Part shown: positions 13,331 through 63,943 of the stretch, piece after piece | Layout: each line of letters opens with the position of its first letter | Numbering within the stretch: the stretch's first letter is position 1 | DNA from: Verrucomicrobiia bacterium | Lineage (GTDB): Bacteria > Omnitrophota > Omnitrophia > Omnitrophales > Aquincolibacteriaceae | DNA: 64,000 bases | Assembly (NCBI GenBank): GCA_035495615.1 | Contig: DATJFP010000097.1 | Coordinates: 4,495-68,494, forward strand | Reading direction: 5' to 3' | Made by a program: the position numbers and the translations under genes | Notes under the pieces: model-generated | What the model saw: the letters and a program-made list of their open reading frames with translations, nothing else | Told to the model about the DNA's origin: nothing | Database searches by the model: none

Positions 13331-13336
13331 GAAAAC

Positions 13337-15040: not shown

Positions 15041-16758
15041 GCCCGCAAGTGACGGCACAGCAGCCCAAAGCGCCCCGTCTTTTCTCGCTCGCCGCGATCA
15101 GCGCGGCCCTTGCCATCGGCGTCTGGACCGCGCTCGACCGCGGACGGCTCCTGATGTGGTTTTACCGCTATTCGTATTACGCCATGGGCCTGCTGTTTTT
15201 CATGTGGATCTACGGCCTGGTCCTGGCCTGGCGCGAGGCAAAGCCGGATGCGCGCCGCTTCCTGAAAGAAAACGGGGCGGGCCTTCTTTTTTGCCTGGCG
15301 CTCGCGGCCCTTGTTTTTATTTCTTCGCGGCCGCAATACCGCCTCTTGAGCGACGAGACGAACCTTCTCTCCGTTTCCAAATCCATGCTCTACGACAAGC
15401 ACGTCGCCAACGTCACGCAGGGCAAATGGTTTCATTACAATTTTTACGCCGAAGAGTACCAGCCGGAGAAAAGGCCATTCCTTTTTCCGTTCGTGACCTA
15501 CCTGGCGCATACGATCCTGGGCTTCCATGCCTGGAACCCGTTCGTGGTGAATTTTTTCTCGCTCGCGGCGCTGCTCTTTCTCGTCTTCGTCTATTTAAGG
15601 AAGCATGCGTCCGGGGCCGCGGCCTATGCGGCCGTGCTGCTGGCCGCGGCGCAGCCGGTCGTGACGCAGACCGCGACTTCCGCCAGCATGGATATGCTGG
15701 CCCCGCTGGTCTTTCTCGCGGTGCTTCTCACCGTGAAATATTTTCTCGACCGGCCCGGCCCGGACAGTTTTTTGCTGCTCTGGCTGCACCTGTTGCTGCT
15801 GGCCAATGCGCGCTATGAAGGCCCGCTCTATGCGGCGCTTGTTCTCGGGCTTTTGGCCTGGTCCGGACGACTCAAGGCCGGCTATTTCCGTTCTTCGGCG
15901 GTTTATCCGCTGACACCGCTCGTCCTTCTCCCGGTTTTCTGGCAGCGTTTCATGATCCCGACCGATCTCGAAGTGCCTCCGGGCGTGAAGCCCTTTTCGC
16001 TGGAGCACCTTTTCCAGCACACTCTGGATTTTCTCGGGACGCTCACGCGTTTCGATTTCGTGCTGCCGTACGCCACGCTCGTCAATCTCGCGGGACTGGC
16101 CGGCCTTCTTTTCTTCGCGACCCGATTCGCGGCCCGCCGGTGGCCCGCGGAAAAGCCGCAGAGGCAGGCGGTTTCCATCGCGGCTTTTTTGTTCCTGGCT
16201 TACTGGGTCCTCATCAACGCGCACTTCAGCCCGTTCGCGCTGATCTACGACGGAAGCCGCCTTCTCGTGCCCGCGGTGCTCGCGCTCTCGGTTTTTGCCG
16301 CGCTTCTTCTGGAACGGCTGCCGCTTTTCAAACGCCGGCCCTTTTATCTTTTGATGGCGTCGTTTTCGCTCTTTTGCCTCTACCATCCGGTCACGATCGA
16401 AAACAGGGGATGGAATGCCGTCCTGCTCACGCGTGAATACAAATTCATGACGGAATTTTTCGAAAAGCAGAAACAGAAAAATTTTCTCGTCGTCGCTTAC
16501 CGCACCGGCATCTACGCGGCGCGCGAATACGGGGCCGTGAATTTTTATTCCGCGAACGCCAACAAAGACGAATTGCTGGGCGAATTCGGCCATCATCTCT
16601 TCAGCGATATTTTCGTGATCCAGGAAATCGTCTGCGCGACGGATGAGCCCACGCCCGAAACCCGGCTGGATCCCGCCTTCCACCTGCAAAAAATCCTGGA
16701 GTACGCGAAACAGTACCCCGCCTCCAGCAAAATGCGCCTCTCCCGGGTCGTGTTGTAG
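15037..16758 (+). CDS. GT-C-fold-like integral membrane glycosyltransferase candidate, paralog 4 of 4
   Basis: 573 aa. The ATG start overlaps the upstream stop (ATGA). Carries SDETNLLSVSKSML, KRPFLFPF, AAQPVVTQTATSA, NARYEGP, REYKFM, IFVIQEI and LSRVV. Confidence 0.45.
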   Translation: MSPQVTAQQPKAPRLFSLAAISAALAIGVWTALDRGRLLMWFYRYSYYAMGLLFFMWIYGLVLAWREAKPDARRFLKENGAGLLFCLALAALVFISSRPQYRLLSDETNLLSVSKSMLYDKHVANVTQGKWFHYNFYAEEYQPEKRPFLFPFVTYLAHTILGFHAWNPFVVNFFSLAALLFLVFVYLRKHASGAAAYAAVLLAAAQPVVTQTATSASMDMLAPLVFLAVLLTVKYFLDRPGPDSFLLLWLHLLLLANARYEGPLYAALVLGLLAWSGRLKAGYFRSSAVYPLTPLVLLPVFWQRFMIPTDLEVPPGVKPFSLEHLFQHTLDFLGTLTRFDFVLPYATLVNLAGLAGLLFFATRFAARRWPAEKPQRQAVSIAAFLFLAYWVLINAHFSPFALIYDGSRLLVPAVLALSVFAALLLERLPLFKRRPFYLLMASFSLFCLYHPVTIENRGWNAVLLTREYKFMTEFFEKQKQKNFLVVAYRTGIYAAREYGAVNFYSANANKDELLGEFGHHLFSDIFVIQEIVCATDEPTPETRLDPAFHLQKILEYAKQYPASSKMRLSRVVL

Positions 16759-36164: not shown

Positions 36165-36330
36165 GAAGTCGGGTTTTAGCCGGGTGGAATCCAGGAACCC
36201 GGCTGCCCCGCTTGCCGGGACAAAATTTACTACGACATTTTTCGGAACTTACTGAATTTTAATCTTTTAAGCGTTCGAGCCGATAATATTGTTTCCTGAA
36301 CCGGCCTTTTGGCCGTCGGAAAGGAAGGAC

Positions 36331-37062
36331 ATGAACGCGCAAAATCGTGACCCCAAAGTCACGCTGGCCGTCTATACCCTCAATGAAATTGACGGGATGC
36401 GCGCGGTCATGCCCAAAGTCCGCAAAGAGTGGTGCGACGAAATCATCGTGATCGACGGCGGGTCCACGGACGGGACGGTCGAGTACGCCAGGGAGCAGGG
36501 CTATGCCGTTTACCGGCAGAAAGAGCCGCGGTGGGGCGGCGCGCACCGGGAGGCTTACAGCCGGGCCGCGGGCGACATCGTGATCGATTTTTCCCCGGAT
36601 GGGAATTCCGTGCCGGAACTCATCCCGCAGCTCGTGGCCAAGATCAAAGAGGGATACGACATGGTCATTGCGTCGCGTTATACCGGAGGCGCCAAAAGCG
36701 ACGACGACACCGCGGTGACGGGCTTCGGCAACAGTCTTTTTACATTTCTGGTGAACTTGCTTTTCGGCTGCCGGTATACGGATTCGCTGGTCATTTACCG
36801 CGCCTTCACCCGCCCGTTTCTCGAAAAAGCGGGGGTCGTCAACTGCAGCCTGCCGCAATGCGTGACCGTCCTGACCTGCATCCGGGCGGCGAAAATCAAG
36901 GCCAGGACCGCGGACGTGCCCGGGGACGAGCCTCCCCGCATCGGAGGCCACCCCAAGATGAACCCCTTGATCGACGGGCTGCGCGTGCTGGCCGTGATTT
37001 TTAAGGAATTTTTTATTCGCGATTTTAAAAAAAGCTGCGTTTCCCAGAACATTCAAGCGTGA
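36331..37062 (+). CDS. GT2 polyprenyl-phosphate sugar transferase (DPM1/ArnC/GtrB-like), paralog a
   Basis: VTLAVYTLNEIDGM…IIVIDGGSTDGT…DIVIDFSPDGNSVPE…GYDMVIASRY — the classic GT2 DxD-type layout. The ATG at 36331 is preceded by aaggaagg. Confidence 0.7.
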   Translation: MNAQNRDPKVTLAVYTLNEIDGMRAVMPKVRKEWCDEIIVIDGGSTDGTVEYAREQGYAVYRQKEPRWGGAHREAYSRAAGDIVIDFSPDGNSVPELIPQLVAKIKEGYDMVIASRYTGGAKSDDDTAVTGFGNSLFTFLVNLLFGCRYTDSLVIYRAFTRPFLEKAGVVNCSLPQCVTVLTCIRAAKIKARTADVPGDEPPRIGGHPKMNPLIDGLRVLAVIFKEFFIRDFKKSCVSQNIQA

Positions 37063-45213: not shown

Positions 45214-46218
45214 ATGATGGACGAGAAGAAAATCAAAAAAGTGCTGATCACCGGCATCGCGGGTTCGGGAGGCAGTTATCTGGCGGAATACATCGTGAAC
45301 CATCATCCCGGCGCCCAGGTGCACGGCATGGTGCGCTGGCACAGCGCCGCGGGGAAGGAAAACCTCGCGAACGTTTTGGACCGCGTCCAGCTCCACGAAT
45401 GCGATCTCAACGACATGGTTTCCGTCCTCGAAGTGATGAAAAAGGTAAAGCCCGATGCCATTTTTCATCTGGCCTCGAACGCGAATGTGCGCGCGTCTTT
45501 CATTTATCCCCATGCGGTGCTGAGCAACAACATCCTCGGCACCTGCAATCTTTTCGAAGCCGTGCGGCTTACCGGGATCGACCCTTTGATCCAGCATTGC
45601 TCCACGTCCGAAGTCTACGGCCAGGTGGACCCCAAGAACGTGCCGATCAAGGAAGACTGCCCGATCCAGCCGTCCAGCCCTTACGCGGTGTCGAAAGTCG
45701 CGCAGGATTTTCTGGGGCTCACGTATTTCCGCAGTTACAACATGAAAATTATCCGCACGCGCATGTTCGCCTACATTAATCCGCGGCGCGCGGACCTTTT
45801 CGCCACGTCGTTCGCGAGGCAGGTGGCGCGCATCGAGGCCGGACTCCAGAAAGAGCTCAAGCACGGGAACCTCGATTCGATCCGCACCATGATCGACGTC
45901 CGCGACGCCATGGAGGCGTACTGGGTGGCGCTCGTGCACTGCAAGGCGGGCGAGACCTACAACATCGGAGGCAAGACCACGATTTCCGTAGGCGATTTTC
46001 TGGAGCTGCTCAAAAAGCACGCGAAGACCAAGATCCCGACGGTTCAGGACCCGGCACTGCTGCGGCCCGCGGACGTGACGCTCCAGATTCCGGACACGTC
46101 AAAGTTCAAGGCCGCCACGAAGTGGGAACCGAAGATCAGCTTCGAAGAAAGCGTGGTCAGCCTGCTCGAAGAATGGCGGCGGCGCGTGAAGCGCGAAGCC
46201 GCGGAGGCGAAATCATGA
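45214..46218 (+). CDS. GDP-mannose/heptose 4,6-dehydratase-like SDR (GMD family)
   Basis: KVLITGIAGSGGSYLAEYIV…HGMVR resembles the GMD N-terminus (ITGITGQDGSYLAE…HG). SPYAVSK catalytic region. Confidence 0.55.
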   Translation: MMDEKKIKKVLITGIAGSGGSYLAEYIVNHHPGAQVHGMVRWHSAAGKENLANVLDRVQLHECDLNDMVSVLEVMKKVKPDAIFHLASNANVRASFIYPHAVLSNNILGTCNLFEAVRLTGIDPLIQHCSTSEVYGQVDPKNVPIKEDCPIQPSSPYAVSKVAQDFLGLTYFRSYNMKIIRTRMFAYINPRRADLFATSFARQVARIEAGLQKELKHGNLDSIRTMIDVRDAMEAYWVALVHCKAGETYNIGGKTTISVGDFLELLKKHAKTKIPTVQDPALLRPADVTLQIPDTSKFKAATKWEPKISFEESVVSLLEEWRRRVKREAAEAKS

Positions 46219-46910
46219 GCGGCCGGCCGACGTTCACGCTTTTCATGCCGACGATGAACGAAGTCGAGGGCATGAAGGCCATGATGCCGCGCGTGAATAA
46301 AGCCTGGGTGGACGAGATTCTGGTCGTGGACGGCGGCTCCAGGGACGGCACGCTGGAATACGCCGAGGCGGAAGGCTACCGCATCGCGCATCAGACCAAG
46401 ACCAAAGGCATCATGGGTGCTTACATGGAAGGCCTGCCGCACGTCAAAACTGACGTGGTGATCGCGTTCAGCCCGGACGGCAATTCGCTTCCCGAGCGCA
46501 TCCCCGCGCTTGTCGAAAAAATGAAAGAAGGCTACGACATGGTGATCGTGTCCCGGTATCTCGACGGCGCTAAAAGCGAGGACGATGATCCGGTGACGGC
46601 GTTCGGCAACTGGATGTTCACGACCATGATCAATGTCGCGTTCGGCGGTCATTATACGGATTCGCTCGTCATGTTCCGCGCGTGGGTCAAAGATTCCCTG
46701 GGTTCGATTTCGCGCGTGGAATTCCCGCGCGCCGGATTCGAGCCGCTCATGTCCATCCGCTGCGCCAAGGAAAAAAGAAAAGTCACGGAAATCCCGGGCG
46801 ATGAGCCCAAGAGAATCGGCAGCGCGCGGAAAATGGACCCGCTGAAAAACGGCATGGACATCCTTCGCCTCATCGCGGCCGAAAAAATGGCGCGGGGACG
46901 GCGTCCATGA
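46216..46910 (+). CDS. GT2 polyprenyl-phosphate sugar transferase, paralog b
   Basis: FTLFMPTMNEVEGM…ILVVDGGSRDGT…AFSPDGNSLPE…GYDMVIVSRY. The ATG overlaps the upstream stop (ATGA). Confidence 0.7.
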
Positions 46911-47590
46911 AAGTCACCCTCCTCCTGCCGACTCTGAACGAGGTCGAAGGCATGAAGGCCGTGCTGCCCCGCATCCGCCGTGAATGGGTGGACGAGATCT
47001 TCGTCGTGGACGGCGGTTCCACCGACGGCACGATGGAATACGCGAAGGAACAGGGATGCCGCGTATTGCGTCAGACACGCAAAGGCGTGCCCGGCGCATA
47101 CCGCGACGCGCTGGAACACATCGACAGCGATATCATCATCACCTTCAGCCCTGACGGCAATTCGGTCCCGGAAAAAATCCCGGAGCTGATCGCCAAGATG
47201 AAAGAGGGCTACGACATGGTCGTTGTCTCGCGCTACATGCCGGGAGCGAAAAGCGAGGACGACGATCCGGTGACGGCCTTCGGCAACTGGATGTTCACAA
47301 AAATGATCAACATCCTGTTCGGCGGAAATTCCACGGATTCGCTGGTCATCTTCCGCGCCTGGAAAGCGGACCTGGTCAAAAAGGCGATCGAAGTGCCGCC
47401 GCGCGCGGGCTACGAATTGTACACGACGATCTACTGCGCCAAGCACAAACTGAAGACCGCGGACATCCCCGGCGACGAGCCCAAACGCATTGGCGGCGAG
47501 CGCAAGATGAACCCGCTGAAGAACGGCCTCGCGGTCCTGGGGCTCATCCTTTCCGAAAAGTTCTGCCCTCACCGGGGGAAACATGAGTAA
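46907..47590 (+). CDS. GT2 polyprenyl-phosphate sugar transferase, paralog c
   Basis: VTLLLPTLNEVEGM…IFVVDGGSTDGT…TFSPDGNSVPE…GYDMVVVSRY. Overlaps the upstream stop. Confidence 0.7.
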   Translation: MKVTLLLPTLNEVEGMKAVLPRIRREWVDEIFVVDGGSTDGTMEYAKEQGCRVLRQTRKGVPGAYRDALEHIDSDIIITFSPDGNSVPEKIPELIAKMKEGYDMVVVSRYMPGAKSEDDDPVTAFGNWMFTKMINILFGGNSTDSLVIFRAWKADLVKKAIEVPPRAGYELYTTIYCAKHKLKTADIPGDEPKRIGGERKMNPLKNGLAVLGLILSEKFCPHRGKHE

Positions 47591-48554
47591 GAAGAAGCTG
47601 CTGCTTTGCGGCGCCACGGGATTCATCGGCCGCAACATCCTGGAATCGCTTATCCGCAGTGACGCTTACGAGATTACCGCGGTCCATCATAAAAAGAATC
47701 CCCCTGACACGCTTGCGAAGGAAAAGAAGATAAAATGGGTCCAGGCCGATCTCACGCAGGCCGGCGACGTCGCCCGCGTCATCCCGGGCCAGGAAATCCT
47801 GGTGCAGGCCGCGGCCACGACTTCCGGCGCGAGGGACATCGTGACGAAGCCCTTTTATCACGTCACGGACAACGCGGTCATGAATTCGCTGCTTTTCCGC
47901 AGCGCGTACGAGAACAAGCTGAAGCACGTGGTGTTTTTCAGCTGCACGACCATGTACATGCCGCAGGACTCGCCGGTGAAGGAAGAGGATTTCAAAGGCG
48001 AGATGATCGACAAGTATTTCGGCGTGGGCTGGACGAAAGTCTACATCGAGAAGATGTGCGAGTTTTACGCGCGCCTGGGGCCGGCGAAATACATCGCGAT
48101 CCGGCATTCGAATATTTACGGCCCGCACGACAAATACGATCTCGAGCGCTCGCATGTGTTCGGCGCGACGGTCGCTAAGGTCATGGCCGCGAAAGACAGA
48201 GTGGAAGTGTGGGGCGACGGCTCGGACGAGCGGGACCTGCTCCACGTGGATGATCTCGTGGATTTCGTGGAGCTCGCGCTGGAAAAGCAGGACAAGCCCT
48301 TCGAGCTTTTGAATCTGGGCTCGGGCGTTTCGGTTTCGGTGAAGCAGCTTGTGGAAGCCATCATCCGCGCGTCCGGAAAGAAGCTGGACGTTCATTACGA
48401 TTTGTCGAAGCCGAGCATCGGCTTCAAGCTCAAGATCAATCTCGACAGGACGCGGAAAAATTTTGGCTGGAAGGCTCGCTTGGGGCTCGACGAGGGCATC
48501 CGGAAAACGCTTGAATGGTACCGTGCGAATTATAAGCCTGAGCCGGCGGTTTGA
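47583..48554 (+). CDS. NAD-dependent epimerase/dehydratase
   Basis: LLLCGATGFIGRNI Rossmann motif and a Y…K segment. 323 aa. Confidence 0.7.
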   Translation: MSKKKLLLCGATGFIGRNILESLIRSDAYEITAVHHKKNPPDTLAKEKKIKWVQADLTQAGDVARVIPGQEILVQAAATTSGARDIVTKPFYHVTDNAVMNSLLFRSAYENKLKHVVFFSCTTMYMPQDSPVKEEDFKGEMIDKYFGVGWTKVYIEKMCEFYARLGPAKYIAIRHSNIYGPHDKYDLERSHVFGATVAKVMAAKDRVEVWGDGSDERDLLHVDDLVDFVELALEKQDKPFELLNLGSGVSVSVKQLVEAIIRASGKKLDVHYDLSKPSIGFKLKINLDRTRKNFGWKARLGLDEGIRKTLEWYRANYKPEPAV

Positions 48555-49258
48555 TGGAAGCGATTATCCTCGCCGGTGGGCTCGGTACGCGCCTCGGCGC
48601 GTTGACGCGGGACGTTCCCAAGCCCATGGTGCCGGTGAAGGGCCGGCCGTTCCTGGAATACCTGATGGATTACTGGCGCGGGCAGGGCATCACAGGCTTT
48701 GTGCTGTCGGTGGGTTATAAGTCCGAAGTCGTGCAGTCCCATTTCGGCGCAAGTTACAAAGGCGCGCCCGTGCGGTACAGCGTGGAAAAAGAGCCTCTCG
48801 GTACTGGCGGTGGTTTGCTTCAGGCCCTGCGCATTTGTTCGGGCAAAGGGCCGGTGCTGGCGCTGAACGGCGATACTTTTTTTGCCGCCGGATTAAAGCC
48901 GCTGGCGGATTTGTACGGCAAAGCCAAGGCGGATCTGGTCATGGCGCTTTTTGAAGTGGCATCGCGTGACCGTTACGAAGGCGTCGCGCTCGAAGCCTCG
49001 GGCCGCATCAAAAAATTTATCCGGCGCGAAGACAAACAGCTTTGCCAGTTCGCCAACGGCGGCGTTTATCTGATCAATCCAGCGCTGGCGCAAGGCGCGC
49101 CGGAAGGGAAGGCGTCGCTGGAAAACGAATTGCTGCCCGCGTGGCTTTCGCAGAAAAAAGCCGTTTACGGCGCGGCGGCGCATGGAACCTTTATTGACAT
49201 CGGAACGCCCGAGGATTACGCTCGGGCCGAACAAGTGCTGGCCCGGGGACAGGTCTAA
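48551..49258 (+). CDS. sugar-1-phosphate nucleotidyltransferase, HddC-like (heptose-1-P guanylyltransferase-like)
   Basis: MEAIILAGGLGTRL…VPKPMVPV.G.PFLEYL. At 235 aa, size and N-terminus match HddC/GMP-type small nucleotidyltransferases. Confidence 0.65.
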   Translation: MMEAIILAGGLGTRLGALTRDVPKPMVPVKGRPFLEYLMDYWRGQGITGFVLSVGYKSEVVQSHFGASYKGAPVRYSVEKEPLGTGGGLLQALRICSGKGPVLALNGDTFFAAGLKPLADLYGKAKADLVMALFEVASRDRYEGVALEASGRIKKFIRREDKQLCQFANGGVYLINPALAQGAPEGKASLENELLPAWLSQKKAVYGAAAHGTFIDIGTPEDYARAEQVLARGQV

Positions 49259-49269
49259 GACCTGTCCCC
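49245..49269. repeat. perfect 25-bp palindrome GGGGACAGGTCTAAGACCTGTCCCC (copy 1 of a repeat family)
   Basis: The upstream gene's TAA stop sits in the loop and the next gene's ATG starts 1 nt after the 3' arm. Confidence 0.8.
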
Positions 49270-50229
49270 ATGAATAGGAAAGGAGTTCCCTTGAGCGAAC
49301 GTATTTTGGTTACCGGAGGCGCGGGCTATCTCGGGTCCATCATGGTCCCGGAACTTTTGAACGCGGGCTACCAGGTCACGGTCCTGGACAATTTCATGTA
49401 CCATCAGAACAGCCTGAACCATGTGTGCGCGAACCCGAAATTCGAGGCCGTGCGCGGAGACACGCGCGACGCAAAGGTGATGAAAGCTCTGCTCGCTAAA
49501 GCCGACGTCATCATTCCCCTTGCCGCGCTTGTCGGCGCGCCGCTCTGCGACCGCGATCCCATCGCGGCCACGACCACCAACCGCGATGCCGTCGTGAGCA
49601 TCGTCAAGGCGCTCAGCAAGGAACAGAAAATCCTGATGCCCGTCACCAACAGCGGCTACGGCGTGGGCGAAAAAAACAAGGAATGCACGGAAGACTCGCC
49701 GCTCAATCCCATTTCGCTGTACGGACGTGACAAGGTCGAAGCGGAACAGGCGATTCTCAGCCGGCCGAATTCGATCAGCTTCCGTCTGGCCACGGTTTTC
49801 GGCATGAGCCCGCGCATGAGGATCGACCTTCTGGTCAACGATTTCACTTACCGCGCGGTCTATGACCGGTTTATCGTGCTTTTCGAGGCGCATTTCAAGC
49901 GCAACTACGTGCACGTCCGCGACGTGGCGCGCGTTTTCCTGCACGGCCTCAAGAATTTCGACAAGCTCAAGGGGCAGGCGTATAACGTGGGGCTTTCGGA
50001 CGCCAATTTGTCCAAGCTCGAGCTCGCGCAGCGCATCAAGAAGTTCATCCCTTCGTTTACGATCATGGAAGCGCCTGTCGGCGAAGACCCGGACAAGCGT
50101 GATTACATCGTGTCCAACGCGAAGATCGAAAAGACCGGCTTCAAGCCGCAGCATTCGCTGGACGACGGCATCCGTGAATTGATCAAGGGCTACACCATGA
50201 TCAAGAACACGATTTACACCAACATTTAA
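49270..50229 (+). CDS. NAD-dependent epimerase/dehydratase
   Basis: ILVTGGAGYLGS Rossmann motif. 319 aa. Confidence 0.65.
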   Translation: MNRKGVPLSERILVTGGAGYLGSIMVPELLNAGYQVTVLDNFMYHQNSLNHVCANPKFEAVRGDTRDAKVMKALLAKADVIIPLAALVGAPLCDRDPIAATTTNRDAVVSIVKALSKEQKILMPVTNSGYGVGEKNKECTEDSPLNPISLYGRDKVEAEQAILSRPNSISFRLATVFGMSPRMRIDLLVNDFTYRAVYDRFIVLFEAHFKRNYVHVRDVARVFLHGLKNFDKLKGQAYNVGLSDANLSKLELAQRIKKFIPSFTIMEAPVGEDPDKRDYIVSNAKIEKTGFKPQHSLDDGIRELIKGYTMIKNTIYTNI

Positions 50230-50235
50230 CCGTTA

Positions 50236-50328
50236 GCATGGACGGGGACAGGCCTTGTGCGAATACTGAGGCGTCAAGCTTCAGAGAGCCTGCCGAAATC
50301 ATTGGGATTTCGGCGCAGACCTGTCCCC
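50236..50328. repeat. repeat family copy 2: GCATGGACGGGGACAGGCC … (65 nt insert with inner hairpin CGAAATCattggGATTTCG) … AGACCTGTCCCC
   Basis: Carries the same terminal arms as copy 1 but split by an insert. It lies in the intergenic space after the epimerase. Confidence 0.7.
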
Positions 50329-50338
50329 AAGGCTTTGA

Positions 50339-51331
50339 ATGCACACGGCCTATGGCATGCCGCAAACGCTTGCGGCGGGCGGTACAAAATTCATGAATCC
50401 CGACATCGATTTCACCAAACCCGATGATCTCGAAGGCGCATTCAAGGCGCTCGGCAGGAATGTGGCGGTCTCGCGCGGACATTGGGAAAGAGACAATGAC
50501 TGCGAGGCGCGCGACCTGGCCTGGAACCACATCGATCAGATGCACCGGCAGCACATCCACGGCACTTACACGGACGCGCTCCGCTTTTTCCGCTCCCGCT
50601 CGAACGCCGTTTCGCTGACCCGCATGCGCATGCCGCTGCTCGGGATTCCTCTCTGGGTCGTGGTCAACGACATCCAGCTCGGCGAAGGCCTGTATTATCA
50701 AACGTTCACGCTTTTCAATCTCCTTCACGTGCACATGATCAACAAAATCAGCCCGCGGGCAAACAAGTCCCGCGAAGAGCTCGACTGGTTCGTGGTTTCG
50801 CATAAGCTTCTCAAGTTCCTGCACGCGCCGCTGACAAAAAGATTCAGCGGGATCATGCAGCTCCAAAGCGGGGAAGACGTTCCCATCCGCGTGCGCCGCG
50901 CGGCGCTGCGCGAAAAAGGGTATTCATTCGACACGGACAAGCCTGACATGATGAATTCCAACAAAGTGACCAGCGGCGTGATTCCTCCGAGGCTTTCCGG
51001 CGCGCAGAGGATTTCCCTGGATGGGCTCGAGGTTTCGGCGAGGCCGCACCGCGTGGCCGCGGGCCCGGTCGAATTTCTGGTGCTGCGCCAGGGCCCGCGT
51101 GACATGACGGTCTGGACCGAGGTGTGCCCGCATCAAGGAGGCCCTTTGTCGGAAGGGAGGATTTGCCAGGACCAGATCGAATGCCCGTGGCACGGCCTCA
51201 AGTTCGCCGGCGCGCGGCTTACGGAAGACAAACCTTACGGAAAGTTCGGGCGCTATGAATTGCGCCTCGAAAACAACACCCTGAGCATCGAGGAAAAGGA
51301 AGCCGCTGCGGCGCCGCGCCATGCCCTATGA
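50339..51331 (+). CDS. Rieske [2Fe-2S] domain protein with uncharacterised N-terminal domain
   Basis: C-terminal CPHQGGPL…(17 aa)…CPWHGLKF is a Rieske CxH…CxxH motif. I do not recognise the N-terminal ~220 aa. An alternative start at 50393 is possible. Confidence 0.55.
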   Translation: MHTAYGMPQTLAAGGTKFMNPDIDFTKPDDLEGAFKALGRNVAVSRGHWERDNDCEARDLAWNHIDQMHRQHIHGTYTDALRFFRSRSNAVSLTRMRMPLLGIPLWVVVNDIQLGEGLYYQTFTLFNLLHVHMINKISPRANKSREELDWFVVSHKLLKFLHAPLTKRFSGIMQLQSGEDVPIRVRRAALREKGYSFDTDKPDMMNSNKVTSGVIPPRLSGAQRISLDGLEVSARPHRVAAGPVEFLVLRQGPRDMTVWTEVCPHQGGPLSEGRICQDQIECPWHGLKFAGARLTEDKPYGKFGRYELRLENNTLSIEEKEAAAAPRHAL

Positions 51332-52517
51332 TTTCGTAATCGCCGGAGCCGGCATCGTCGGCCTGGCCACCACTTTCGAATTGCGCAAACGCCATCCGGG
51401 CGCGCGCCTGCTCGTCCTCGAAAAAGAACCGGAGCCGGGCCTGCACGCGAGCGGGCGCAACAGCGGCGTGCTTCACTCCGGCATTTATTATTCGCCGTCC
51501 ACGCTGAAAGCGAAGATCTGCCGCGAAGGGCAGAGGCGCATGATCGCTTTCGCGCGGGAACACGGCATCGCGATCCGTCAGGACGGGAAAGTGATCATCG
51601 CCTCGCGCGAACAGGACATTCCCGTGCTGCACCGGCTCATGGGGAACGCGAAGGCCGGCGGGATCAAGGCCGAATTGCTCAGCGCGGACGACATCATGAA
51701 GATCGAGCCGCATTGCAGGCCTTTTCAATACGGCATCCATTGCCCGGAAGTCGCGGTGATCGACAGCCGCGCCGTCGTCCATAAGCTCGCGGAGCTGCTT
51801 ACGGCGCAGGGCGTGGAAATCCGGTATTCGGAAAAAATCACCGGCGTCGACGAGGCCCGCAAAACCCTGCGCACGTCGAAGGGGAAGCACGATTTCTCTT
51901 ATTTCGTCAATTGCGGCGGCGCCCACGCGGACAGAATCGCCAGGTTTTTCGGGCTGGGGCAGGACTTCGTCCTCGTGCCTTTCAAGGGAATTTATTATCA
52001 CCTGCGGAGCGACCGGGATTTCCTCGTGAGGTCGAACATTTATCCCGTGCCTGATCCCGAGATGCCGTTCCTGGGCGTGCATTTTACGCGCGTGATTCAG
52101 GGAGGCGTTTATGCCGGGCCCACGGCGATTCCTGCGTTCAGCCGCGAAAACTACGGGCTGTTCCAGGGAATCCAGCCGGAAGAAATGGCGGCGATCATGG
52201 GCCAGCTTACGAAGATGATGTTCGGGCCGGACCCGATTTTCCGGAAGCTGGTGAGGCAGGAACTTTCCAATTACATCAAGTCTTACTTCGTCGCGCGCGC
52301 GCAGAAACTCATTCCTGAAGTCCGCTCCGAAGACCTGGAGCTTTCCGCCAAGGTCGGCATACGCCCGCAGCTGGTCAACCGCAAGACCCAGAAGCTGGAA
52401 ATGGATTACGTGCTGGAAAAGACCGCGTGCTCCCTGCATGTCCTCAACGCGATTTCTCCGGCGTTTACCAGCGCCTTTGCGTTCGCGGAAGAGATTGTTT
52501 CCCGCATTAGTAAATAG
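51321..52517 (+). CDS. lhgO: L-2-hydroxyglutarate oxidase/dehydrogenase-like FAD oxidoreductase
   Basis: YDFVIAGAGIVGLATTFEL…LEKE…HASGRNSGVLHSGIYY closely parallels the LhgO N-terminus. Confidence 0.65.
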   Translation: MPYDFVIAGAGIVGLATTFELRKRHPGARLLVLEKEPEPGLHASGRNSGVLHSGIYYSPSTLKAKICREGQRRMIAFAREHGIAIRQDGKVIIASREQDIPVLHRLMGNAKAGGIKAELLSADDIMKIEPHCRPFQYGIHCPEVAVIDSRAVVHKLAELLTAQGVEIRYSEKITGVDEARKTLRTSKGKHDFSYFVNCGGAHADRIARFFGLGQDFVLVPFKGIYYHLRSDRDFLVRSNIYPVPDPEMPFLGVHFTRVIQGGVYAGPTAIPAFSRENYGLFQGIQPEEMAAIMGQLTKMMFGPDPIFRKLVRQELSNYIKSYFVARAQKLIPEVRSEDLELSAKVGIRPQLVNRKTQKLEMDYVLEKTACSLHVLNAISPAFTSAFAFAEEIVSRISK

Positions 52518-52527
52518 GAGCTATGGG

Positions 52528-52568
52528 CATGGACGGGGACAGGTCTTTAGACCTGTCTCCATGGGCGT
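52528..52568. repeat. repeat family copy 3: GCATGGACGGGGACAGGTCTTTAGACCTGTCTCCATGGGCG
   Basis: An imperfect palindrome with the same GGGGACAGGTCT core. It lies after lhgO. Confidence 0.7.
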
Positions 52569-52633
52569 GAATGCATGAGGCCTGTTGCGAGCGCGCGGGC
52601 CTTTGCAGGCAAGCGAGCGCTTAATATCGCGGA

Positions 52634-53539
52634 TCAACACGACTGGCGGATGACGAGCTCGGGAAGGAATTCTTTCTGCAAGGGTCCGACGGCGCTGCCT
52701 TCCAAAAGGGAAATCATCATCGCCACCATCTCGCGCCCCATTTTTTCCAGCGGCTGGCGGATTGTCGTGAGCGCGGGTTCCAGGTACTTGCCTCGTTCCA
52801 GGCCGTCATAACCGATGATCGCGACCTGCTCGGGGCACTGGATCCAGGATTCTTTCAGCGCGCGGATGGCGCCGATGGCGATGTCGTCGTTGAAGCAGAC
52901 GATGGCGCGGGGCAGCGGCTTGACGTTCTGGATCATGTCCATCATTTTCAGATAGCCGTCTTCCTCGAAAAAATAATCGCACTTGCGGTAGAAAGACGGC
53001 TCGAACTCGAGCCCGTTCTGCGTGAGCAGCTCGCGGTAGATCTCGTAGCGCTCGCGCGCATCGAGTGATGCTTCGTCCGGGCCCTGCAGCATGCCGATCT
53101 TGCGGTAGCCTTTGCTGATCAGGTGACGGACGGCGAGCGTCGTTCCCATTTTGTTGTTGCAGTAGACGATGTTGGCCTTGAGCCCGGGCGTGAAGTCGTT
53201 GATCAGCACGACGGGAAGCGGCGAGCCTTCCACGGCCTCTTCGATGTAGCGGGGATGGATGCGCCAGGTGAGAAGAAGCAGCCCGTCCAGGTCGTGCTCC
53301 TTGAGAATTTTCTCGCTGGGATCGGCGTAGGCCTCGTCTTTGACCATGATCATTTTGAGGTCGTAATTCGTGTTGCGGAGGGCGTCGATGATGCCGGCAT
53401 TGATGCGCGTGAAGTATTCGCTGCGAAAGATTTCCGGCGTGAAAGCGGTCAAGAGACCGACGGATTTTCTTTTTTTTCTGATCGTGGCAGGCATGAAGAT
53501 ATTTTCCGGTTGCAGACGCGCGGCGTCGGAGGTCATCAC
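52634..53539 (-). CDS. LacI-family sugar-binding (periplasmic-binding-fold) protein lacking the N-terminal HTH
   Basis: Central and C-terminal regions (VGLL…, IVCFNDDIAIGAIRAL, VAIIGYDG) match the LacI/GalR ligand-binding domain. The N-terminal ~30 aa contain no helix-turn-helix. Confidence 0.5.
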   Translation of the reverse strand: MMTSDAARLQPENIFMPATIRKKRKSVGLLTAFTPEIFRSEYFTRINAGIIDALRNTNYDLKMIMVKDEAYADPSEKILKEHDLDGLLLLTWRIHPRYIEEAVEGSPLPVVLINDFTPGLKANIVYCNNKMGTTLAVRHLISKGYRKIGMLQGPDEASLDARERYEIYRELLTQNGLEFEPSFYRKCDYFFEEDGYLKMMDMIQNVKPLPRAIVCFNDDIAIGAIRALKESWIQCPEQVAIIGYDGLERGKYLEPALTTIRQPLEKMGREMVAMMISLLEGSAVGPLQKEFLPELVIRQSC

Positions 53540-53696
53540 GTTCTCCTAGGGGACAAGGGACGACACTCTAGCACCGGGTATGCTGAAATGCCAGCGGAAT
53601 TTAGGCGCTCAAAGAGATTCCTCCAAAAGCCGATGGATAAGGGGGAATAAATCCGGCCGCGGCGCGTCTGTTATAGTTAAGGAAAGAAAGGCACTT

Positions 53697-54332
53697 ATGA
53701 AAAAGCTGAATTCAGGCTTCCTGGCAGGGATGATGCTCGCCGCGCTTTGCGCCGCTCCGGCCGGGCCTTCTTTTGCCGCCGGGGAAGACACGGCGATCGT
53801 CATCCGCGTCATCGACGCCAATACCATTGTCCTCAAAGGGGGCCAGGAAGTCCGTCTGATCGGTGTGCGCTCGCCTTCCGCCCTGGATGCGGATCGCAAC
53901 AACGCCCTTGCCAAACAGGCCGGCCTCAAGACCGAGTCCCTTGCCGACGTGGGCCGCCAGGCTAAGGAGTTCGTGGAATATCTCGTGCAAGGACAGACCG
54001 TGAGGCTGGAGCTGGATCCCGGCCTTGCCTCGATCAATCACCGCGACCGCGAGGGACGCATTCTGGCCTATGTGTGGTTTACAACGCCGATCTTCGCGCA
54101 GGCTCCCGACTGGCTGGTCATGGATCCTTCTCCGAAAACGCCGCAGGACGCCTTTCTCAATGCCGCGGTCATGCGTGCCGGTTACGCCGCGCTGGAAACC
54201 GATTGGCCCTTTGCGTTCGGAGGAAAATTCCTGGCCCTTCAGGAAGAAGCCAAAAAAAGTAACCGGGGCATGTGGCAGCAGCGCATTTCCATCCCTCCGG
54301 CCCCGCCCGCTCCCAAGCCCGGCAAGCACTAA
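53697..54332 (+). CDS. secreted thermonuclease (SNase-like) family protein
   Basis: Signal peptide MKKLNSGFLAGMMLAALCAAPA. IDANTIVLKGGQEVRLIGV…ERDREGRILAYVW is typical of staphylococcal-nuclease homologues. The ATG at 53697 is preceded by aaggaaag. Confidence 0.6.
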   Translation: MKKLNSGFLAGMMLAALCAAPAGPSFAAGEDTAIVIRVIDANTIVLKGGQEVRLIGVRSPSALDADRNNALAKQAGLKTESLADVGRQAKEFVEYLVQGQTVRLELDPGLASINHRDREGRILAYVWFTTPIFAQAPDWLVMDPSPKTPQDAFLNAAVMRAGYAALETDWPFAFGGKFLALQEEAKKSNRGMWQQRISIPPAPPAPKPGKH

Positions 54333-54472
54333 TCCTAACCTCTTATCGCCAATTAGTTTACAAAAAATAATTTTCAACCCTCCGTTTGAAAAAGCCTTTT
54401 GCCTGCGGGTATACTTATCACAAGTCAAAGTGTGTCCTTAGTTAACCATTAACCCAGGCGATTTAGGGCGAG

Positions 54473-56329
54473 ATGATCGTCAGTATTCTGGATCCTACCC
54501 ATTACGCATTTAATCCTCACGCGATTCCGTTCCTGATCGTGGGCGTCCTGATCTCGGTTCTCGGAATTTTCGTTCTTGCCAGCGACCGGCCGTCCGCCAG
54601 CAGCCTTTCGTTCTGCCTGCTTTGCCTCCTGCTGGGCTGGTGGCTGCTCTCTTTTACCATGCTTTTTTTCTCCGTGCCGATCGCGACCGCGGTTTGGTGG
54701 GTCAAGTCCGCCAATGCCGCCGTCGTTTTTATTCCGTCGATGGTTTTTCTTTTTACTCTGGCCACGCTGGGGAAACTCTCCAAGCACCGGACCTTTGTCT
54801 TCGCCGGTTTCTCAATTTCCTGCTTCTTTCTTGCCACGGTCTTCATTCCCGGAGGACTCATTGCCGGAGCGGAAAAGCATTTCTGGGGAAACTACACGCG
54901 CTACGGGAAAATGATTTATCCTTTCCTGGTTTTTTTCGGCGCCATGCTGCTGTCCAGCCTTATTCTATTTGCCAGGGAGTACCGCGTCAGTTCGGGGGTG
55001 AAGAAAAAGCGGCTGCGCATTCTTCTATGGAGCTTCGGCATCGGCTATATCGCGTCCGTTGATTTCCTGCCGGCGCTCGGCATCGACATCTTTCCCTTTG
55101 GATACATCTGCGTTTTCATTTACATCGTGATGATGGCACAGGGCATCTGGCGGTACCGCTCTGTCGACATCAATTCTTCTTTTGCCGCGGACCAGATCAT
55201 CAGGACCGTGGCGGATGCGCTGCTGGTCATCGACGGCAGCGGCATCGTGCGCGTTTCCAACGAGGCTGCCAACCGGCTTTTCGCGGCCGGGGAGTCGCTT
55301 GTCGGGGCGCCCATGAGGACGCGCGGCATCGCGTTTTTCAAAAAAGAGAATCTGGCGCGGCTTTTGTGTTCGGGAAAAGTGCAGCGTTCGGAAGTCGCGT
55401 TTCACGACCGGGACCAGGGGCATATCATTCTCGAGATTTCCACGTCCGTGATTTCGGAGAATTCGGGGGAAGGCATGGCGCTGGTCTGCATCGCCAAAGA
55501 CATCACCGAACGCAAGAACGCCGAAGAAGCGCTGCGCAGAAGCGAAGAGCATTACCGGCTGCTGGCGCAGAACATCTCGGACGTCATCTGGATCATGGAC
55601 ATGAATTTTAAATACACTTTCATGAGCTCTTCCGTGTCGCGGTTCCGCGGCTTTACCGCGGAAGAGGCCATGGCGCAGAAAGTGGAAGAAACGCTGACGC
55701 CGGAATCCGCGCAGATTTTCATGAAGGCCGTGGCCGAAGAGGTGACGCGGCCGGAGGCCAAAGACAAGAACGGGCCGGCCTCCTGCACGCTGGAGCTGGA
55801 GTTCACGTGCCGGAGCGGTTCTTCGGTCTGGAGCGAGACCAAGATCACTTTCGTACGCAATGCCGAGGGACGGCTCACGGAAATCCTCGGTGTCGCCCGC
55901 GACATCTCCGAACGCAGGCAGGCGCTCAAGGCGCTCGAGGAAAGCGAAGACTGCTACAACGACCTGATCCGCCAGGCCCAAGATGCCATCCTGACGGTCG
56001 ACCGGTACGGGTACATTCAGGCTGTGAATCCTTCGGCGGAAAGGGTGCTGGGCTACCAGGCCGCCGAGCTTACCGGGCATCATTTTGCGAAGATGGGAAT
56101 CCTTTCGCCCAACTCCGTCGCGAAGACGCTGCAGGAATTCACGCTGACCATTCTGGGCTGGCAGCGACAGCCGTTCGACCTGCAGGTCCTCCGGAAAGAC
56201 CAGCTCGCGGTCGCCATGCGCGCGCACGCGAAAATCATCCGCCGCGACAAGGACCACGTCAAAGTCCAAGTCGTCCTCCGGCAGATTACGGAAGAAAACA
56301 AAGGCCATCCCTCGGCCCTTTCCGCCTGA
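54473..56329 (+). CDS. 7TM membrane sensor with three cytoplasmic PAS domains and no recognisable output domain
   Basis: The N-terminal ~230 aa are polytopic (7TMR-DISM-like). Three PAS-like repeats follow. The protein ends after the third PAS, with no HisKA/HATPase, GGDEF or EAL domain. Confidence 0.55.
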   Translation: MIVSILDPTHYAFNPHAIPFLIVGVLISVLGIFVLASDRPSASSLSFCLLCLLLGWWLLSFTMLFFSVPIATAVWWVKSANAAVVFIPSMVFLFTLATLGKLSKHRTFVFAGFSISCFFLATVFIPGGLIAGAEKHFWGNYTRYGKMIYPFLVFFGAMLLSSLILFAREYRVSSGVKKKRLRILLWSFGIGYIASVDFLPALGIDIFPFGYICVFIYIVMMAQGIWRYRSVDINSSFAADQIIRTVADALLVIDGSGIVRVSNEAANRLFAAGESLVGAPMRTRGIAFFKKENLARLLCSGKVQRSEVAFHDRDQGHIILEISTSVISENSGEGMALVCIAKDITERKNAEEALRRSEEHYRLLAQNISDVIWIMDMNFKYTFMSSSVSRFRGFTAEEAMAQKVEETLTPESAQIFMKAVAEEVTRPEAKDKNGPASCTLELEFTCRSGSSVWSETKITFVRNAEGRLTEILGVARDISERRQALKALEESEDCYNDLIRQAQDAILTVDRYGYIQAVNPSAERVLGYQAAELTGHHFAKMGILSPNSVAKTLQEFTLTILGWQRQPFDLQVLRKDQLAVAMRAHAKIIRRDKDHVKVQVVLRQITEENKGHPSALSA

Positions 56330-63010: not shown

Positions 63011-63943
63011 TCAATGCTCGCCGCCGCCGCCGAAGAAAATCGAATCATCGATAGAAGCCGACACGGACAGGGAGGTCGAGATCGAGGCCCGGATTGAAAC
63101 AGACTGGGAGGTGGACTGCGACGTGGACGAAGCCGTCGAAGCGGATTTCGACTGGGACACGGACGTCGAGTTGGACTGACTTTGCGAGGCTGAGGTCGAA
63201 TCCGAAGTGCTTTGCGACGTCGATCCCGAAATGGATTGAGACGTGGACTGCGACTGCGACGGCGAAATCGAGGCCGACAGGGATGTCGAAAGCGACGAGC
63301 TCTGGGAAACCGATGCTTCTTTCGAAATGTTCTCCGAAATACTCTCAGACTTTGACTGCGAACTGGAGATCGATTGAGAGACCGACTGGACCGGCGATAT
63401 CGACTGCGAGAGTGACGTCGAGGTGGATTTAGACGTCGACTGGCTTTGCGAAATCGACGTCGACGCGACTACGGACTGAGAAGTGCTTTGCGACCCGGAG
63501 ATCGAACCCGAAATCGAGCCGGACTGCGATTGCGAGGTCGAAGCCGCCTGGGAGGACGAGCGCGAAATGGACGTGGACGTCGAATTGACCGCGGAATTAG
63601 AAGTTGATGTGGACGTGCTTATGGAGCCCGCCGTGGATCCGGATTGCGAAACCGACTGCGAAAAAGACGGAAATCCCGATTGCGACGTTGAGGTTGAGCC
63701 CGAGGTGCTTGTGGATCTGGACGTCGACGTCGACAGGGAACCCGACGTGGATTGCGACGTGGAACGGGAGCGGCTCGCGGACCCCGACCCCGAGGCCGAC
63801 TGCGACACCGAGGTGCTGTTCGATCCCGCCACGGACCCGGAAGTCGAAATGGACGACGACACCGAGGGGGCGTTGGATTGAGAGATCGATCCGGAGATCG
63901 AACCGGCCGTGGATCCCGAGATCGACCCGGAAATGCTGGCCAC
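63011..63943 (-). CDS. serine/threonine-rich low-complexity repeat protein (partial; may extend past window end)
   Basis: At least 933 nt of uninterrupted frame encode (S-x)n repeats (SISGSISGS…, STSQSTSGS…, SVSQSISSSQS…). Plus-strand frames over the same DNA break into short acidic ORFs, so the minus strand is favoured. Confidence 0.45.
   Translation of the reverse strand: MASISGSISGSTAGSISGSISQSNAPSVSSSISTSGSVAGSNSTSVSQSASGSGSASRSRSTSQSTSGSLSTSTSRSTSTSGSTSTSQSGFPSFSQSVSQSGSTAGSISTSTSTSNSAVNSTSTSISRSSSQAASTSQSQSGSISGSISGSQSTSQSVVASTSISQSQSTSKSTSTSLSQSISPVQSVSQSISSSQSKSESISENISKEASVSQSSSLSTSLSASISPSQSQSTSQSISGSTSQSTSDSTSASQSQSNSTSVSQSKSASTASSTSQSTSQSVSIRASISTSLSVSASIDDSIFFGGGGEH

Follow-up and report, generated by a model that had tools for sequence, protein, structure and literature searches.

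The question raised by this locus is what three closely related palindromes are, and how they came to lie in the spacers of a single operon, in a 64,000-nt stretch of DNA from a Verrucomicrobiia bacterium (GenBank assembly GCA_035495615.1, contig DATJFP010000097.1, positions 4,495 to 68,494 of the forward strand; the whole stretch is called the window below). The original prediction, made from the letters of this DNA, had described a family of three intergenic palindromes and had listed several readings for it, from elements resembling the repetitive extragenic palindromes (REPs) or miniature inverted-repeat transposable elements (MITEs), through attenuators or terminators without a T-tract, to operators bound by a protein. 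The positions that it gave for all three copies are correct, and each copy indeed lies in a spacer after a plus-strand gene, the three within 3.3 kb. We consider it very probable that they are REP-like repeat elements gained by insertion. The copies and their parts are as follows.

49245–49269, plus strand: hairpin of copy 1, GGGGACAGGTCT-A-AGACCTGTCCCC, a perfect 25-nt palindrome.
50230–50392, plus strand: copy 2, a long-form unit that fills the spacer between the SDR and Rieske genes.
50230–50235 and 50236–50243, plus strand: left part of copy 2, CCGTTA and then GCATGGAC.
50244–50255 and 50317–50328, plus strand: arms of copy 2, GGGGACAGGCCT and AGACCTGTCCCC.
50256–50316, plus strand: interior of copy 2, 61 nt with two inner hairpins.
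50292–50314, plus strand: nested perfect hairpin in this interior, GCCGAAATCattggGATTTCGGC, that is GCCGAAATC-ATTGG-GATTTCGGC.
50335–50343, plus strand: right part of copy 2, TTGAATGCA, followed by the tail up to the probable Rieske start ATG at 50393.
52522–52626, plus strand: copy 3, a short-form unit; the DAO/FAD oxidoreductase gene ends before it (stop at 52517) and the convergent LacI-type gene after it (stop at 52634).
52527–52534, 52535–52546, 52549–52560 and 52561–52575, plus strand: parts of copy 3, namely GCATGGAC, GGGGACAGGTCT, then after TT AGACCTGTCTCC, and ATGGGCGTGAATGCA, followed by the tail.

As predicted, copy 1 is a perfect palindrome with a TAA at its apex; this is the stop codon (49256–49258) of the open reading frame (ORF) of an NTP-transferase, the last four codons of which, together with the TAA, come from the copy. 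For copy 2 the arms and the nested hairpin were also described correctly, whereas the inserted stretch, put at about 65 nt, measures 61 nt between the arms and forms two inner hairpins. Copy 3 has one arm change that still leaves a G.U pair on the plus strand. Every intact arm of the three copies opens with GGGGACAG, and the sequence just before a copy is GGAC or GCCC, that just after it ATG or AAG. Outside the palindrome, copies 2 and 3 also have in common the left-hand GCATGGAC and approximately 30–45 nt to the right, including TGAATGCA, while copy 1 is a minimal form without the GCATGGAC left flank, its right flank ATGAATAGG (49270–49278) aligning weakly with the TTGAATGCA..AGG of the family. 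The three hairpins are real and well above chance. In the 64-kb window the 12-mer is matched 11 times with up to two mismatches against 3.6 expected matches, a number reached in 0/100 shuffles; GACAGG-N(1-31)-CCTGTC is observed twice against an expectation of 0.04; and, of the six perfect hairpins whose stem measures 9 bp or more, three fall within the 3.3-kb stretch. Predicted folding energies of the three copies range from -23 to -47 kcal/mol, with z about -3.5 to -3.9, the simple hairpins folding at -23 to -25 kcal/mol.

Comparison with a contig of a relative (L121), collinear gene for gene with window positions 45214–56329 at 65–78% nucleotide identity, reveals that the alignment gaps fall exactly at the three copy sites. 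In L121 the genes overlap by 4 nt at the first junction, lie 11 nt apart at the second and are convergent and overlapping at the third, where the window has 33, 163 and 116 nt, respectively. The site of copy 1 holds 18 unrelated nt in L121, GGGGACAG is absent from all 11.6 kb of this contig, and synteny continues past the operon into LacI-type, SNase and PAS-kinase genes. Since a collinear contig lacks the palindrome at all three junctions, the alignment indicates that the copies were gained in the spacers of an otherwise conserved operon and are not ancestral; at junction 1 the element replaced the ancestral C-terminal tail of the NTP-transferase. The same comparison bears on the idea that the palindromes are factor-independent terminators or attenuators partitioning the operon. 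Their stems are very stable, as the energies of the simple hairpins show, copy 3 stands at the operon end between convergent genes, and the corresponding stems of Omnitrophota are flanked by A-runs and T-runs in the manner of bidirectional terminators. A terminator scan, however, finds none at the window copies, no T-tract follows any of them, copies 1 and 2 lie directly upstream of the ribosome-binding site (RBS) and start of the next gene of the operon without a promoter-like site, and L121 runs these genes together without spacers. We therefore regard this explanation as improbable, and termination without a T-tract is not supported as the primary role of elements two of which directly precede the next RBS and start inside an operon. 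A promoter scan found no sigma-70-like site at any copy or in the repeat unit described below, and base composition is uniform across the region, with no compositional island.

The window copies belong to a larger repeat. A pattern search of metagenomes with the left flank plus the arm, GCATGGACGGGGACAGGYCT, recovered nine loci, eight of them from sample Ga0310810 (GC 0.57–0.62); the ninth is of low GC content and without hairpin, and corresponds to about the chance expectation. A hidden Markov model built from the metagenome copies found one further, diverged copy, in L126, and L130 contains a second exact match, so that Ga0310810 holds at least 10 copies at unrelated loci (eight loci, the second match in L130 and the L126 copy). 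Searches with nhmmer matched window positions 49244–49294 to model positions 15–68 (copy 1; E=1e-5) and recovered 52525–52626 (copy 3; E=1e-26). The unit is approximately 100 nt in length and directional: it consists of (C)CGTT-GCATGGAC, the 12-bp hairpin GGGGACAGGTCT/AGACCTGTCCCC, A..G.TTGAATGCA and a less conserved tail, ..AGG..CYTTGC.GGCAAAA, that usually reaches the RBS and start of the next gene. It occurs in a short, a minimal (copy 1) and a long-loop form (copy 2); its 5' half is nearly invariant, and the tail has drifted. The (C)CGTT found at the left boundary in about half of the copies could be a target or cleavage site. A predicted short outer helix, GCAU/AUGC, encloses the hairpin and tolerates only G.U changes; in the L126 copy the hairpin is kept by compensated changes, GGGGACAGGAC-T-A-GTCCTGTCCCC. 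The 3' tail of the unit has no significant predicted fold (z from -1.9 to +0.7).

The 61-nt interior of copy 2 is found again at an unrelated locus, L129, with 88.6% identity over 114 nt, and the nested hairpin is conserved there with a different loop. Because of this recurrence, the long form is taken as a propagated subfamily and not the outcome of one local event. The proposal that copy 2 is the fossil of an insertion into an ancestral palindrome is accordingly not borne out, the more so as variable interiors are the rule in other phyla. The genes beside the units are functionally unrelated across loci, an observation that touches the operator reading, in which the palindromes would bind a local regulator such as the LacI-family protein encoded at 52634–53539 on the minus strand. 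The sites are palindromic and the LacI-type gene adjoins copy 3, but the unit stands beside unrelated genes at about 10 other loci in the metagenome, the stem occurs in at least eight other phyla, and L121 keeps the LacI-type gene without any palindrome. Moreover, a 12+12-bp palindrome with a spacer of 1–2 nt is unlike the operators of LacI/GalR proteins. Judged from this distribution, the operator reading appears effectively refuted, and we give it hardly any credence.

How far the stem extends beyond these bacteria was assessed in the GTDB species representatives (596 Gb) with the pattern GGGGACAGGTCT-N(1-31)-AGACCTGTCYCC. Among the matches listed, the exact stem is present in more than 120 stretches, from genomes of 27–72% GC belonging to Omnitrophota, Acidobacteriota, Planctomycetota, Bacteroidota, Bacillota, Actinomycetota, Chloroflexota and Pseudomonadota, with subgroups such as Vicinamibacterales and Aminicenantes (both Acidobacteriota), Prevotellaceae, Coriobacteriales, Haliea, Nitrosomonas and Methylococcaceae; with Verrucomicrobiota, the stem is known from at least nine phyla. 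Several genomes are multi-copy, one metagenome-assembled genome (MAG) of Acidobacteriota having at least eight exact copies. In these other phyla the arms are constant, and the interiors (1 to >60 nt) and outer flanks are lineage-specific, the flanks often being complementary and giving long nested hairpins. In looser copies at the GTDB loci the constant part is GGGGACAG/CTGTCCCC, and further inward a change in one arm is matched by a change in the opposite one, a 2-nt insertion among them; stem variants are GGGGACAGG, GGGGACGG, GGGACCG and GGTGTCAGG. The random-sequence expectation for the pattern is below one. These loci contain, per Mb, approximately 66 unrelated perfect hairpins whose stem measures 12 bp or more; a few hits in 596 Gb would thus be a fair background for any single 12-mer stem, and the number of hits, the occurrence of multi-copy families and the range of phyla all lie far above it. 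A long-ORF stop codon lies within 80 nt of 61% of the GTDB hairpins and points at the hairpin, as compared with 12% of random positions, and 14% have such a stop on both sides vs. 0% of random positions. Neighbour-gene clustering at 120 GTDB loci gave no transposase cluster and no gene family that recurs beside the hairpins, the largest cross-locus cluster being an ABC ATPase at eight loci. In the viral contigs of IMG/VR neither the real pattern nor a swapped-arm control had a match, which leaves the control uninformative; a plasmid BLAST search gave no relevant match, and in a string search of the literature the 12-mer and the 8-mer matched nothing but eukaryotic primers without relevance here.

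In species without GTAG REPs, Di Nocera, De Gregorio & Rocco (2013, BMC Genomics 14:522; PMC3733652) described genes ("TIRYTs") resembling those of REP-associated tyrosine transposases (RAYTs) and flanked by inverted repeats; several of these terminal inverted repeats (TIRs) share the consensus GGGGWSAS and form repeat families. The core GGGGACAG fits this consensus. A six-frame search of all loci with the TIRYT sequences from the supplement of that paper identified homologs in L004 (PF01797, full length) and in L053 (decayed). L004 is a Eubacteriales MAG with dispersed ATTGGGGACAGGTCTTTTCGCGAAAAGACCTGTCCCCAAT hairpins (L004:753, L118), and its PF01797 gene has palindromes of approximately 85 nt on both sides, containing GGGACAGGTCC and GGGGACAGTCCC; this is the architecture of a REPtron or TIRtron. 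The ortholog of this gene in L144/L145 is flanked by ATTGGGGACGGTTCTTTTCGCGAAAAGAACCGTCCCCAAT, which has the design of the dispersed L004 hairpin with a co-varied arm. Ten distinct Y1 loci were compared, comprising L004, six loci encoding proteins related to that of L004 and three encoding planctomycete proteins related to rba_2408: repeats that are mutually inverted or themselves palindromic stand on both sides of the gene in 10/10 of them, and the motif GGG(G)AC[ACG]G is present in 7/7 loci of the Firmicute clade, the Pirellulales TIRYT clade being flanked by another motif, GGTGTCAGGTACC. The hairpin core of the window copies is the same as the one that flanks RAYT-like HUH/Y1 genes (PF01797) in other bacteria. 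The best NCBIfam match of the Y1 proteins is the REP-associated tyrosine transposase entry (NF047646), with scores of 56–61 bits that lie below its 80-bit equivalog cutoff, and the TIRYT clade is very large, with at least 8000 candidates at E <= 1e-10. On Clostridia-like contigs (GC ~0.3) the Y1 gene lies just downstream of hisS in four loci (L139/L140, L144–L146, L147) and is followed by mutS2 in four (L134, L139, L140, L144/L145). This suggests vertical inheritance and domestication of the Clostridial gene, which, like RAYT genes, would be kept as a single copy at a conserved position. An approximate IS200 TnpA query gave no match.

These flanking repeats also bear on the MITE reading listed in the original prediction. 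Taken as MITEs, the elements would belong to an insertion sequence of the DDE type, and terminal inverted repeats of 12 bp would bound an interior that varies. The constant arms, enclosing interiors of 1 to >60 nt, do resemble such an arrangement. On the other hand, neither the window copies nor those of GTDB have direct target-site duplications, and their flanks are often complementary; interiors of 1–2 nt are too short; in 887 kb of GTDB loci no transposase lies between widely spaced paired arms; the neighbourhoods show no recurrent DDE gene; and the arms flank Y1 genes instead. We thus consider a DDE origin very improbable. Of the two names originally joined in one term, REP-like is upheld by the gains relative to L121, the dispersed multi-copy occurrence and the presence of the core beside Y1 genes, and MITE-like is to be dropped.

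Several further observations concern the hairpin-bearing loci themselves. In Acidobacteriota/Vicinamibacterales (L002, L010, L013, L036, L037, L039, L068, L082, L091, L093, L102, L103, L112, L113 and others) there is a nested palindromic element of approximately 125 nt, in which an outer arm, (GTAG)GGGGACGGGTCTGTTTTCCACAG, holds the DnaA-box-like TTTTCCACA, followed by a variable complementary spacer and an inner GGGGACAGGTCTC hairpin; its copies are 80–86% identical between loci and genomes, and a GTAG tag opens some of them. Another, related palindrome family adjoins GGGGACAGGTCT hairpins in Haliea and Planctomycetia (L066 1843–1869, flanks of L009, L101); it reads GGGTCAGGTCCC...GGGACCTGACCC or GGGGTCTGACCCC and fits GGGGWSAS too. 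In several copies from Clostridium MAGs (L015, L021, L057, L073, L083) one inverted sequence serves both as outer flank and as inner loop stem; these copies, located directly upstream of an RBS and start codon, could fold alternatively into two small hairpins, each showing the 12-mer as its loop. L053 (Nitrosomonas sp. Nm132; 2101–2715 and 6130–6375) carries a frameshifted, decayed TIRYT-like gene 1.5 kb from the hairpin and, in the same 8 kb, a group II intron (RF02005, 100 bits). Some resemblances were considered and set aside: hammerhead-like loops in Omnitrophota copies (CUGAUGA...GAAA) were rejected for want of stem II; the similarity of the 7-mers GACAGGT and GCATGG to 16S rRNA was taken as coincidence; and the RYYYAAC- and GTTRRRY-like strings near copy 2 do not make an integron attC site, since a right-hand core site is lacking, the genes form a conserved operon and the family is dispersed.

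Analysis of orientation reveals that the unit is co-oriented with its upstream gene in 13/13 assessable copies (10 metagenomic and 3 of the window), that the downstream gene is co-directional too in at least 10 of the 13, and that an RBS and a co-directional gene start follow within approximately 30 nt in at least eight. L130 contains two copies, 1.7 kb apart and in opposite orientations; because each of them follows its own upstream gene, transcription and not the direction of replication is pointed to as the reference frame, GC skew, which was checked for replication-linked orientation, being uninformative. Of six imperfect stem positions, five still pair as G.U on the sense strand, which is suggestive but too small a number for significance. 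Orthologous sites with hairpins are shared by related genomes (L016/L072 and L088/L117), and in L088/L117 the arms are intact with flanking genes only 71–73% identical; relatives within Haliea differ in hairpin presence or absence (L043/L052, L089/L104). These features invite another explanation, namely a cis-acting RNA module selected by the host, an intercistronic or 3'-untranslated hairpin recognised sequence-specifically, e.g. by a double-strand-specific RNase or an RNA-binding protein, that sets mRNA processing, stability or relative expression of the cistrons, mobility being secondary or extinct. The uniform co-orientation of the verrucomicrobial copies, including the opposite pair of L130, the closely following gene starts, the G.U pairs on the sense strand, the intact arms of L088/L117 and a near-invariant 5' half beside a drifted tail all speak for it. 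However, the orientation bias could instead stem from counter-selection of one orientation, or from insertion into the transcription-exposed non-template strand; the wobble count does not reach significance; the orthologous cases were chosen by requiring intact arms in both genomes; the tail lacks a significant predicted fold; the neighbouring genes are functionally unrelated; and L121 keeps the same genes without the unit, so the operon does not need it. No Rfam family matches either: none reaches its threshold in the region of the copies, in the whole window or in 18 hairpin-bearing loci. The best sub-threshold match, and the only one touching a copy, is BjrC80 (18.5 bits against a threshold of 80 bits, window 49242–49269), a small RNA of Bradyrhizobiaceae; this match may reflect a REP-like hairpin embedded in that RNA model. 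On balance we judge a primarily host-selected RNA module unlikely, while keeping it in mind.

Returning to REP-like elements gained by insertion, we consider it reasonably probable that the full mechanism includes a transposase, the palindromes being REP/REPIN-like non-autonomous elements of the TIRYT class. A single-copy TIRYT elsewhere in the genome would recognise the hairpin when it is single-stranded and folded, with GGGGACAG at the base, and would cut and paste, or copy, the unit in trans, in analogy to E. coli TnpA-REP acting on REPs and to the TnpA of IS200/IS605 acting on its end hairpins. Co-evolution with a widespread transposase clade would keep the sequence of the stem, and not just its structure, constant at 27%–72% GC. 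After insertion the units would be co-transcribed with the operon, only the sense orientation being tolerated or useful; they may rewrite gene ends, as with the stop codon of the NTP-transferase, and, as stable hairpins in the transcript, they would probably have a buffering effect on 3' decay or processing between neighbouring cistrons.

A number of points weigh against this account. The three copies lie within 3.3 kb, and a local duplication of copies 2 and 3 with their flanks is possible on this contig. The 13/13 co-orientation and the intact arms at orthologous sites suggest selection at the level of the host rather than purely selfish spread. Neither tag of the classical REPs, GTAG or CGTC, is present in the window copies. 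The cross-phylum count of more than 120 is a lower bound and was ascertained with an exact pattern, for which the chance expectation is a few hits and not zero. The planctomycete TIRYT motif GGTGTCAGGTACC is a different one, so that the pairing of motif and enzyme is clade-specific. Finally, no Y1/RAYT-like gene is found in the 64-kb window, in L121–L133 or in 118/120 GTDB loci, as expected if the gene is single-copy, and for the verrucomicrobial lineage a cognate TIRYT is inferred. A still wider proposal is a pan-bacterial REP-like superfamily with the GGGGACAGGTCT helix as recognition element, maintained through co-evolution with the very large DUF1568/TIRYT branch of Y1 enzymes and domesticated in some lineages (e.g. 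Verrucomicrobiae) into a strictly sense-oriented intercistronic RNA module; we offer it as a speculation that we consider unlikely. If it were true, the constancy of the stem and its conservation at orthologous sites would reflect a host function besides recognition by a transposase.

The copies are located at the distal end of a long plus-strand operon for sugar-nucleotide and polysaccharide metabolism (GT2 glycosyltransferases, epimerases, NTP-transferase, SDR, Rieske protein and DAO-type oxidoreductase), followed by the convergent LacI-type gene; two of them are placed between co-directional genes and one within a convergent pair. The neighbouring genes are the following.

48551–49258, plus strand: NTP-transferase gene (PF00483); copy 1 rewrites its C-terminal end and supplies its stop.
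49292–50229, plus strand: SDR epimerase/dehydratase gene, start at TTG 49292 behind the RBS GGAAAGGAG.
50393–51331, plus strand: Rieske [2Fe-2S] protein gene, probable start at ATG 50393.
51321–52517, plus strand: FAD-dependent oxidoreductase (DAO) gene, the last gene of the plus-strand operon.
52634–53539, minus strand: LacI-family gene, adjoining copy 3.

Copy 1 does abut an ATG, as had been noted, but this ATG is probably not the start of the next gene: since the gene caller and the L121 ortholog agree on TTG 49292 and the RBS GGAAAGGAG precedes it, the SDR gene probably starts there. Similarly, the Rieske gene probably starts at ATG 50393 and not at the called ATG 50339, because homologs have 312–315 residues and the ortholog aligns from 50393; the second spacer therefore amounts to 163 nt, all of it element sequence. 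The called ATG belongs to the TGAATGCA motif of the unit, and the first 18 codons of the called ORF (50339–50392) are probably an annotation artefact made by the element. Copy 3 has the same ATGCA, followed by a dead-end ORF of 17 codons. For this contig, three odd spacers are thereby explained, and two gene starts and one gene end corrected. Elsewhere in the window, positions 9879–16758 hold four tandem paralogous genes of approximately 1.7 kb each (567–578 residues), 60–86% identical at the nucleotide level in patches, with one weak PMT_2 (dolichyl-phosphate-mannose mannosyltransferase-like) match among them, the others having no Pfam match. At 63011–63943 (minus strand) a periodic repeat of 6/12/18 nt, GA-rich on the plus strand, overlaps a 310-residue ORF without Pfam match that is probably a low-complexity repeat protein. 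The GT2 glycosyltransferase paralogs at 36289–37062, 46122–46910 and 46907–47590 are 62–78% identical over approximately 280 nt, two of them adjacent in the operon and the third 10 kb upstream.

What is known of REPs and RAYTs comes almost wholly from Proteobacteria, where the repeats are lineage-specific, and the TIRYT clade, with its thousands of members, is annotated only as "IS200-like/DUF1568". The putative link between stem and TIRYT offers a testable enzyme-substrate pair for a large, neglected class of repeats, and the stem is a simple sequence handle for annotators of MAGs, in which such hairpins also break assemblies. Among known systems, the REP/REPIN-RAYT pairs (REPs and BIMEs of E. 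coli with TnpA-REP, REPINs of Pseudomonas) resemble the present elements as short, GC-rich extragenic palindromes just downstream of genes, between co-directional or convergent ORFs, that can supply a stop codon, as reported for REPs, and that show compensated stem changes and G.T pairs. They also share the single-copy, vertically inherited and repeat-flanked Y1 transposase acting in trans, represented here by the Clostridial gene at the conserved hisS-mutS2 position. As to the tag, CGTC can be read on the opposite strand of the window copies only by including a paired base of the stem, which is G-C-first, unlike that of CGTC families, and some acidobacterial and JBDRRS copies begin GTAG-GGGGAC. 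The stem is a perfect 12 bp here, whereas REPs have 6–9 bp with bulges, and it is found across phyla, whereas REP families are normally lineage-specific.

ERIC/IRU and Correia (CREE) elements are likewise imperfect-palindrome units of approximately 100–150 nt, intergenic, co-transcribed and able to affect mRNA processing or stability; however, neither has sequence similarity to the unit. Correia TIRs have TA target duplications and carry promoters and RNase III sites, and ERICs occur in both orientations, whereas the verrucomicrobial unit is in sense in 13/13 copies. The ends of IS200/IS605 and the PATEs share the recognition of subterminal single-stranded hairpins by an HUH/Y1 enzyme and the absence of TIRs in the DDE sense and of target duplications. 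PATEs, however, consist of two related imperfect hairpins, at the left and right ends, whereas the unit has one invariant perfect hairpin and a drifting tail, and, in contrast to IS200/IS605, no tnpA or tnpB gene is near the window copies. A similarity to the inverted repeats of the Tn3 family (GGGG...) was discarded, as it covers the tetranucleotide only. The TIRtrons (PMC3733652), with the GGGGWSAS consensus that the core GGGGACAG fits, also comprise moderately abundant, dispersed families of inverted dimers or hairpins in species without GTAG REPs, Acidobacteria and Planctomycetes included, and PF01797 genes flanked on both sides, as in L004 and L134–L148, which belong to other genomes. That paper gives the motif only for TIRs beside transposase genes of a few isolates, whereas the present stem is identical over its 12 bp in at least nine phyla and, in the verrucomicrobial lineage, forms part of a directional composite of approximately 100 nt. 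Thus, REP-RAYT systems and the GGGGWSAS repeats flanking TIRYTs were already described, and what goes beyond the literature consulted is a single exact 12-bp stem shared by at least nine phyla, its explicit link to a large RAYT-like clade, and an oriented composite unit with a long-loop subfamily.

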